From IMG/VR virus record IMGVR_UViG_2537561509_000007: DNA of 6,054 nt. The stretch is one strand, 5' to 3'. Made by a program: the position numbers and the translations under genes. The notes beneath the pieces were generated by a model. It saw only the letters and a program-made list of their open reading frames with translations, had not been told where the DNA came from and did no database searches. The stretch is from a virus. Its lineage: Duplodnaviria > Heunggongvirae > Uroviricota > Caudoviricetes. How positions within the stretch are numbered: position 1 is the stretch's first letter; each line of letters starts with the position of its first letter. Positions 3,573-4,817 of this stretch are shown one piece after another.

Positions 3573-4817
3573 ATGAGCACTGATAAAGAAGAATTTGCGC
3601 TATATTGCGAAGCAAAAAATGACAAAGTCAGAAAACGTCTGGGAATTAAAGGTGGTTTTTACTGGACTACAGCAAAAAAATTATCTGTTGCCATCTCCCG
3701 CTGCATTACCGCAATGGATGACAACGATTATGATGAAGACGACTTTAAAAAACCCGTTCGCGTCCATTTACCCGTTGTGAATGACCTTCCACCTGAAGGC
3801 GTGTTTGATACCGAATTCTGCAACCGATACGAAAAAGGCGGGGAAGATGGCATTACAATGGTATTTATCGCGCCCTCTCCCTCCGTGCAGGAGAAACCAG
3901 CCAGTACTGACAATACCAACGTCAACGGCGAAGACATGACGGAGATTGAGGAGAATATGCTCCTGCCGGTTTCTGGTCAGGAGCTGCCCATTCGCTGGCT
4001 TGCGCAACACGGCAGCGAAAAACCAGTAACGCACGTTGCACGGGAAGAACTTCAGGCATTACATATAGCACGGGCGGAAGAACTGCCGGCTGTTACTGCC
4101 CTGGCCATTTCTCACAAAACAAAGCTGCTCGACCCGCTGGAGATTCGCGACCTTCACAAACTGGTACGCGACACTGACAAAGTTTTCCCTAATCCCGGTA
4201 ATTCAGACCTGGGACTGATAACTGCTTTTTTCGAGGCATACCTGGACGCTGACTACACTGATCGGGGTCTGCTGACAAAAGAGTGGATGAAAGGAAATCG
4301 TGTTTCGCGTATCACCCGTACGGCTTCCGGTGCAAATGCCGGTGGCGGGAACAAAACCGATCGCAATCCGAATTTAGTACACACCTTCGATACGCTGGAT
4401 GTGGAGATTGCAGCAGCCACACTTCCGATGGATTTTAATATTTATGAAATTCCGGGCAGCGTTTATCGTCGCGCAAAAGAAATCGTCCTGAAAAGAGAAA
4501 GTCCGTTCAAAGAATGGTCCGCAGCACTTCGCGCAACCCCGGGTATTCTGGACTATTCCCGCGCCGCTATTTTTGCACTTATCCGGAGCGCTCACCCTGA
4601 GTTTTATCACTACCCGGGACGCCTTCAGGGGTATATCAACGCCTACTTAACGGAGACTGATCACGAGAACCCCAGCAAGGAAACTCTCACTGCTGCACGA
4701 CATACACCGGAAAAAGATATCCTGGAAGAAGTTAACCGCGAACTGTCTGCTAAGCAGGAAACAGAAGAAGAAAATGATGAAGAAAAACCGCAACCATCTT
4801 GCGCAATGGCAGAATGA
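3573..4817 (+). CDS. Hypothetical acidic protein, 414 aa; by position possibly a full-length YdfE-type protein
   Basis: ORF 3573..4817 with GAGG 7 nt upstream of the ATG. It is the longest ORF in the window. It has acidic runs (DDNDYDEDD; a C-terminal EEENDEEKPQPS tail) and a Gly-rich patch (SGANAGGGNKTD). No RT, nuclease or ATPase motif is recognisable to me. It occupies the slot between ydfD and the integrase remnant that ydfE holds in K-12. Confidence 0.8.
   Translation: MSTDKEEFALYCEAKNDKVRKRLGIKGGFYWTTAKKLSVAISRCITAMDDNDYDEDDFKKPVRVHLPVVNDLPPEGVFDTEFCNRYEKGGEDGITMVFIAPSPSVQEKPASTDNTNVNGEDMTEIEENMLLPVSGQELPIRWLAQHGSEKPVTHVAREELQALHIARAEELPAVTALAISHKTKLLDPLEIRDLHKLVRDTDKVFPNPGNSDLGLITAFFEAYLDADYTDRGLLTKEWMKGNRVSRITRTASGANAGGGNKTDRNPNLVHTFDTLDVEIAAATLPMDFNIYEIPGSVYRRAKEIVLKRESPFKEWSAALRATPGILDYSRAAIFALIRSAHPEFYHYPGRLQGYINAYLTETDHENPSKETLTAARHTPEKDILEEVNRELSAKQETEEENDEEKPQPSCAMAE

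Follow-up and report, generated by a model that had tools for sequence, protein, structure and literature searches.

A truncated RecE-family exonuclease pseudogene beside the integrase remnant of an Escherichia coli O157:H7 prophage, and the deletion that probably produced it

The longest open reading frame (ORF) of the 6,054-nucleotide stretch of DNA analyzed here (the window, which always means the whole stretch) is what remains of a RecE-family exonuclease gene already known from a prophage of E. coli O157:H7. With high confidence, we regard it as a pseudogene whose 3' part was lost in one microhomology-mediated deletion, which joined the N-terminal half of the exonuclease gene to a 5'-deleted integrase gene. 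The remnant itself was already known: the Sakai RefSeq record carries a pseudogene, ECs_2216 'exonuclease', at exactly the coordinates of the ORF, followed by a pseudogene ECs_2217 'integrase', and the PGAP annotation of strain TW14359 reads 'RecE family exodeoxyribonuclease, incomplete, missing C-terminus', with a pseudogene call that spans only the first 802 bases. The initial annotation had considered that the ORF might be an intact, uncharacterized protein, a view that these records contradict. What we add to the prior annotation is the single-event deletion mechanism and the exact breakpoint. Homology, parent architecture, breakpoint, distribution and pseudogene annotation, as established here, hold nothing that contradicts truncation. 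The main value of the analysis lies in correct annotation, in that the window's largest ORF is a decayed remnant and no new protein.

Results

Genomic setting of the ORF

The window DNA is 99.97-99.98% identical to that of O157:H7 strains TW14359 and Sakai, and in Sakai the locus is the int-proximal end of prophage Sp11. By gene content, the ORF lies in the early-left region of a lambdoid prophage resembling Qin and Rac (Table 1). DicF contains a terminator-like hairpin (2915-2930) and lies 5' of dicB, as it does in K-12 Qin. Between the ydfA-like gene and DicF, where K-12 has ydfB/ydfC, sit ORFs of 216 and 73 aa, neither of which has a Pfam match. Intact repressors of 214 and 238 aa from related prophages align with the CI-like repressor over nearly its whole length, at 27-32% identity. 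The RefSeq annotation, restricted to the last 339 bp of the gene (ECs_2209; 'LexA family protein' in TW14359), may be too short; Asadulghani et al. (2009, PMC2669165) list the Sp11 repressor as disrupted.

Past position 5785 the window departs from TW14359, in which an IS256-family transposase gene follows, itself truncated and split by ISEc8 (IS66 family), and Sakai differs from the window beyond Sp11, with IS629 inserted at ~5671. The end of the window matches an IS-free DinI-hypothetical-NleG/DUF1076 layout that is 100% identical in other O157 genomes. Since the window continues in this IS-free layout, its source strain differs from both TW14359 and Sakai at 5389-6054.

Table 1. Positions of the features discussed in the text, numbered from the first base of the window.
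Feature	Position	Strand	Details
P22 Cro-like gene	265-555	-	
CI-like repressor, HTH + S24	599-1237	+	uninterrupted 212 aa
216-aa ORF	1682-2332	+	annotated as 212 aa from a downstream start, hypothetical protein WP_000394548.1
Convergent 73-aa ORF	2333-2554	-	annotated as 69 aa
DUF1391/ydfA-like gene			between the CI-like repressor and DicF
DicF small RNA	2881-2932	+	Rfam RF00039, 75 bits vs gathering score 48; full-length model
dicB	3107-3295		
DUF1482/ydfD-like gene	3292-3480		
Shine-Dalgarno-like GAGG	3562..3565	+	7 nt 5' of ATG; read from the sequence
414-aa ORF	3573..4817	+	ATG start; longest ORF of the window
3'-truncated RecE-family / long prophage exonuclease pseudogene (Sakai ECs_2216)	3573..4817	+	codons 1-414; TGA from int-derived DNA
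Pfam Exonuc_VIII (PF06630) region	3741..4139	+	ORF residues 57-189; E=1.6e-34
Terminal helix 381-401 and disordered acidic linker 402-414	4713..4814	+	breakpoint inside linker; pLDDT <50 at 402-408 and 410-414
Imperfect microhomology at junction	4805..4813	.	AATGGCAGA vs AATGGAACA, 7/9; window vs both L002 parental sites
Integrase remnant (Sakai ECs_2217), a tyrosine-recombinase C-terminal fragment 3' of the ORF	4814..5350	+	int codons 254-431; 99.5% identical to L002:9566-10102
Approximate end of Sp11 (att-side boundary)	5389..5402	.	similarity to L002, a locus with a single prophage, ends at 5402; Sakai Sp12 from ~5389
DinI-like gene, following the integrase remnant	5423-5770		Pfam DinI

Coding potential and family membership

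The ORF had been described as the largest gene of the window and its 414-aa product as acidic, and both descriptions hold: it is the longest ORF, and the product has a pI of 5.06, with 71 Asp and Glu residues against 50 Lys and Arg. A word-indexed search returned 5,419 homologues, and an exhaustive search grouped homologues into 222 clusters at 50% identity. For the ORF region in intact genes, dN/dS is ~0.34 in comparison with a 96.5%-identical intact relative and also ~0.34 in comparison with Rac RecE, where dS is near saturation. Given homologues in the thousands, so many clusters and this dN/dS, we judge 3573..4817 to be a real coding sequence rather than a chance ORF.

No domain had been assigned to the product in the initial annotation, a position that a confident match to a characterized family would overturn; such matches were found, and they place the protein confidently in the Exonuc_VIII (RecE/exodeoxyribonuclease VIII) family. 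The Pfam match scores 120 bits against a 25-bit cutoff and covers profile positions 48-203 of 203. The NCBIfam exoVIII model NF007259 aligns residues 1-414 with profile positions 1-409 of 877 at 620 bits, well below the 1269-bit cutoff for a full-length equivalog, which even the intact 820-aa parent protein described below does not reach (999 bits, positions 1-603). PHROG 607 aligns with residues 1-399 over positions 1-402 of 883 (E=1e-194), and residues 58-413 are 57% identical to residues 50-397 of Rac RecE. Homologues in Gifsy-2, SPN3UB, POCJ13, mEp237, HK225 and other phages are annotated as exodeoxyribonuclease VIII or RecE.

In all of these comparisons the ORF corresponds to the N-terminal half of a protein of double its length, and its N-terminal and middle regions are collinear with the family of long prophage DEDD exonucleases. 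Pfam searches found no Rv2179c-like/DEDD domain (PF16473) in the ORF, and no PD-(D/E)XK 5'-3' exonuclease domain (DUF3799) in either the ORF or the intact parent. Because the Rv2179c-like domain of the parent was lost in a 2,321-bp deletion, the ORF is, on sequence grounds, a truncated remnant of a long prophage DEDD exonuclease and no working member of that family.

The intact parent locus

E. coli OkiPb01688 carries the same region (L002) at 99.7% identity to the window, in a locus that adjoins rspB at the Qin attachment site. Its gene order is dicB, DUF1482 and then genes for a '3'-5' exonuclease' (820 aa), an excisionase (83 aa) and an integrase (431 aa). The exonuclease (WP_069905538.1; gene at L002:6001-8463) belongs to the PHROG 607/2082/20376 family; in Pfam, its residues 57-189 match Exonuc_VIII and residues 639-810 the Rv2179c-like domain of DEDD 3'-5' exonucleases (E=1.5e-67). 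The intact gene encodes a RecE-type N-terminal region of ~620 residues and then the C-terminal Rv2179c-like DEDD domain, with xis and int following. A recT gene directly 3' of the exonuclease gene is absent from loci L002, L003 and L004, where xis and then int occupy that position.

Window positions 1364-4817 align with L002 3792-7247, and positions 4805-5402 with L002 9557-10155, at 99.5-99.7% identity. Up to residue 413 the ORF product runs collinear with the L002 protein. Apart from the junction, the ORF departs from L002 in just two places: one substitution puts Lys in place of Thr at residue 195, and an in-frame loss of 3 bp in a GAA/GAG run leaves one Glu fewer in an acidic run. The order dicF-dicB-DUF1482 is conserved on the upstream side; on the downstream side, of xis and int only the 3' part of int remains after the deletion.

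A single deletion joins the exonuclease and integrase genes

Relative to L002, the window lacks one block of 2,321 bp (L002 7245-9565), with the junction at 4813/4814. From the exonuclease gene, 1,219 bases are missing (406 codons, from within codon 415 to codon 820); the exonuclease-xis spacer, xis and the xis-int spacer are gone as well, and int has lost 759 bases (codons 1-253). The initial annotation had proposed a rearrangement joining the gene to a 5'-deleted integrase and had pointed to 4780..4820 as the place to compare with a prophage whose integrase is intact; alignment with L002 bears out the first and puts the breakpoint inside that interval. The window follows the left parent as far as 4813 and is a perfect match to the right parent from that position on. 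Past the junction, the exonuclease frame reads GA/A (Glu414) and then TGA (4815-4817), so that int-derived DNA contributes only the last base of the final codon and the stop codon. For this reason the gene must be considered shortened, not extended. The idea that the rearrangement placed the gene there or lengthened it is not tenable, in that the gene already adjoined xis-int in the intact layout and was truncated.

We propose that a single event of illegitimate recombination at the 9-bp imperfect microhomology deleted exonuclease codons 416-820 together with xis and the first 253 codons of int. The exonuclease frame now continues for 1 nt of int DNA before an out-of-frame TGA stops it.

On the integrase side, the remnant matches only positions 52-165 of the Pfam Phage_integrase profile, while the intact 431-aa Int has an Arm-DNA-bind_2 match and a catalytic domain at residues 206-397. 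The remnant is an incomplete tyrosine recombinase, with neither the arm-binding nor the core-binding domain and without the first catalytic Arg. The motif TGIRPGEL (Int residues 233-240), whose Arg 236 we take to be the catalytic one, lies in the deleted part. The overlap between the two genes reported earlier is real but amounts to 4 nt (ATGA); the 19-nt version stems from a 183-aa integrase ORF opened at TTG 4799, an ORF-finder artefact, as int-derived DNA starts at 4814. The TGA stop of the exonuclease ORF overlaps the ATG of Int M254 (4814-4816), which has by chance produced a classic translational-coupling arrangement. Synthesis of an Int fragment of 178 aa is conceivable in principle, although it would lack the first catalytic Arg.

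A junction-spanning query was matched in full by 225 of 5,426 complete E. coli genomes (224 at >=99% identity), and the remaining genomes match one side of it only. Among the full-length matches listed, those with a stated serotype are mostly O157 or O157:H7. With 225 independent complete assemblies, an assembly artefact at the junction is unlikely. The O157 copies of the ORF are clonal and essentially identical, an identity that reflects clonality, not selection.

Predicted structure of the fragment and occurrence of its N-terminal module

An AlphaFold2 (AF2) model of the ORF product, built from 37 diverse sequences, has a mean pLDDT of 84.1, with folded blocks at residues ~1-100, ~120-260 and ~270-375, a helix at 381-401 and disorder at 101-116 and 402-414. 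Because the breakpoint falls in the disordered acidic linker, the fragment consists, in the model, of whole domains. Neither phmmer against PDB sequences (best E=0.2) nor Foldseek of the model against the PDB (best E=0.79) found a structural relative. That the three blocks are confidently predicted to fold, yet have no informative relative among known structures, agrees with the 'unknown function' assigned to the RecE N-terminal region in the literature.

Across the 37 diverse family members, the N-terminal module is joined to PDDEXK (DUF3799) in nine and to the Rv2179c-like domain in six, and since it is found with both, it appears to be portable. The RecE-type N-terminal region in these proteins is ~600 aa long, and two of the 37 also carry a RecT domain. 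A literature search on the hybrid of a RecE-type N-terminal region with an Rv2179c-like domain in prophages found no paper.

Discussion

Transcription of the fragment could occur together with dicF-dicB-ydfD, by read-through from the repressor-controlled early promoter, as the K-12 dicB layout suggests. A promoter scan found no sigma-70-like promoter on the + strand near the ORF, and no strong terminator adjoins it; there is one weak 5-bp hairpin (3520-3533) between ydfD and the ORF. Translation would yield a 46.5-kDa protein of intact folded N-terminal domains. From its domain content, this product is predicted to be incapable of acting as an exonuclease, and the fragment is most likely a non-enzymatic relic without a selected role.

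Alternatively, the truncated protein might be a functional stand-alone factor, its N-terminal module acting autonomously to bind DNA ends, a partner or a host factor, or acting as a dominant negative; we think this unlikely. In its favor are the three well-folded AF2 blocks (mean pLDDT 84) cut in a disordered linker, an uninterrupted ORF with a Shine-Dalgarno sequence, and the dN/dS of ~0.34 for the N-terminal region in intact genes, and the presence of the same module on two unrelated nuclease domains suggests a portable function. Databases also hold short proteins consisting of the N-terminal region only (PHROG 6528, 348 positions; representatives of 340-343 aa), which may themselves be fragments, and full-length RecE outperforms its nuclease domain alone in linear-linear recombination, according to PMC11611040, citing Fu 2012. 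However, the deletion that shaped the ORF also destroyed xis and int, so its form is a by-product of the breakpoint, and no fold or sequence relative pointing to an activity was found. Furthermore, the N-terminal part is not generally preserved: at the SE11 locus (L004:6142-8460) it is a disrupted pseudogene fragment, whereas a 536-aa C-terminal 'exonuclease' ORF remains open. That the gene is broken the other way round in SE11 indicates that its decay is recurrent, with no bias towards keeping the N-terminal half. There is perhaps a slim chance that the O157:H7 fragment, with its Shine-Dalgarno sequence and its place within the dicB operon, is expressed on derepression and keeps the activity of the portable module; if so, it would be a natural separation-of-function allele. 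In any case, the fragment provides a naturally occurring, ready-to-use construct of the RecE-type N-terminal region.

It is very improbable that the ORF is an intact, uncharacterized acidic early protein, equivalent to an undisrupted ydfE and extended by the rearrangement, as the initial annotation had considered. That reading draws on position: K-12 ydfE occupies the same slot after dicB-ydfD, the 49 bp upstream of the two genes are 96% identical, and ydfE is, as had been stated, an IS-interrupted pseudogene, cut by an IS2 fragment (L005, K-12 Qin, 7079-9709). Against it, BLASTP found no similarity between the ORF protein and YdfE, the N-terminal region belongs confidently to the RecE family, and the ORF is half as long as its 99.7%-identical parent; the ORF and ydfE are both truncated remnants. 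Orthology to ydfE was rejected for want of a BLASTP match, and the link between the two is positional and architectural only, running through PHROG 2082 'exonuclease'. Positions 1-257 of the 823 in that profile are matched by ydfE, positions 245-378 by ORF residues 270-401, and positions 440-822 by residues 432-819 of the intact parent. This pattern identifies ydfE as what is left, at the N-terminal end, of an allele of the same long exonuclease gene that carries a different head. A literature search joining ydfE, Qin and exonuclease found no paper.

A sequencing or assembly error might in principle have joined two frames, which would make the ORF an artefact of frameshift or fusion. This notion had some initial appeal in that the first alignments paired 1245 query with 1247 subject bases and the PGAP pseudogene call stops short at 802 bases, and it can be dismissed as next to impossible, as base-level alignment reveals only the 3-bp in-frame deletion and a 1-base offset at the junction, the protein is collinear with its parent through residue 413, and the identical sequence recurs in hundreds of independent complete assemblies.

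Under the preferred reading, a truncation by one deletion, a single event took away xis and the start of int along with the catalytic domain of the exonuclease, which would explain why Sp11 does not excise. With no excisionase and no working integrase, Sp11 is predicted to be locked in the chromosome. This agrees with Asadulghani et al. (2009, PMC2669165), in which Int is disrupted in Sp3, Sp11 and Sp12, an Exo VIII-type recombination function is intact in Sp10 only, and Sp11 is predicted to be non-excisable. The Sp11 of that study is the locus described here, with Int disrupted and the Exo VIII-type function not intact. The available text of that paper gives no single-deletion mechanism, breakpoint or hybrid parent architecture, all of which are supplied here.

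Comparison with known systems

The closest counterparts of the fragment are the long exonucleases of Qin-site lambdoid prophages, with which it shares 99.7% DNA identity over the retained part, the same slot after dicF-dicB-DUF1482 (ydfD) and the same Exonuc_VIII N-terminal and middle regions; it differs in having lost codons 416-820, the DEDD domain included.

Rac RecE is a more distant relative. Residues 58-623 of the 820-aa parent match RecE residues 50-592 at 62%, and both genes lie in an early-left operon near xis-int. The catalytic domain of RecE is a PD-(D/E)XK 5'-3' exonuclease (residues 564-866; PMC11611040), whereas the parent of the ORF has a DEDD 3'-5' domain in its place and the ORF carries neither. 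In Rac, recT follows the RecE gene, while the parent gene is without recT.

Like the Sp11 fragment, K-12 ydfE is an N-terminal exonuclease stump fused to a 5'-truncated integrase gene (intQ), in its case by an IS2-associated, deletion-type event. The ~255 residues that ydfE retains are a different N-terminal module, and the breakpoints also differ, as does the mechanism (IS2 in K-12, a microhomology deletion in Sp11), for which reasons we consider the two truncations independent. K-12 Qin and O157 Sp11 have each lost the 3' part of the exonuclease gene, xis and the 5' end of int and kept dicF-dicB-ydfD, a parallel loss that fits recurrent prophage immobilization at this site.
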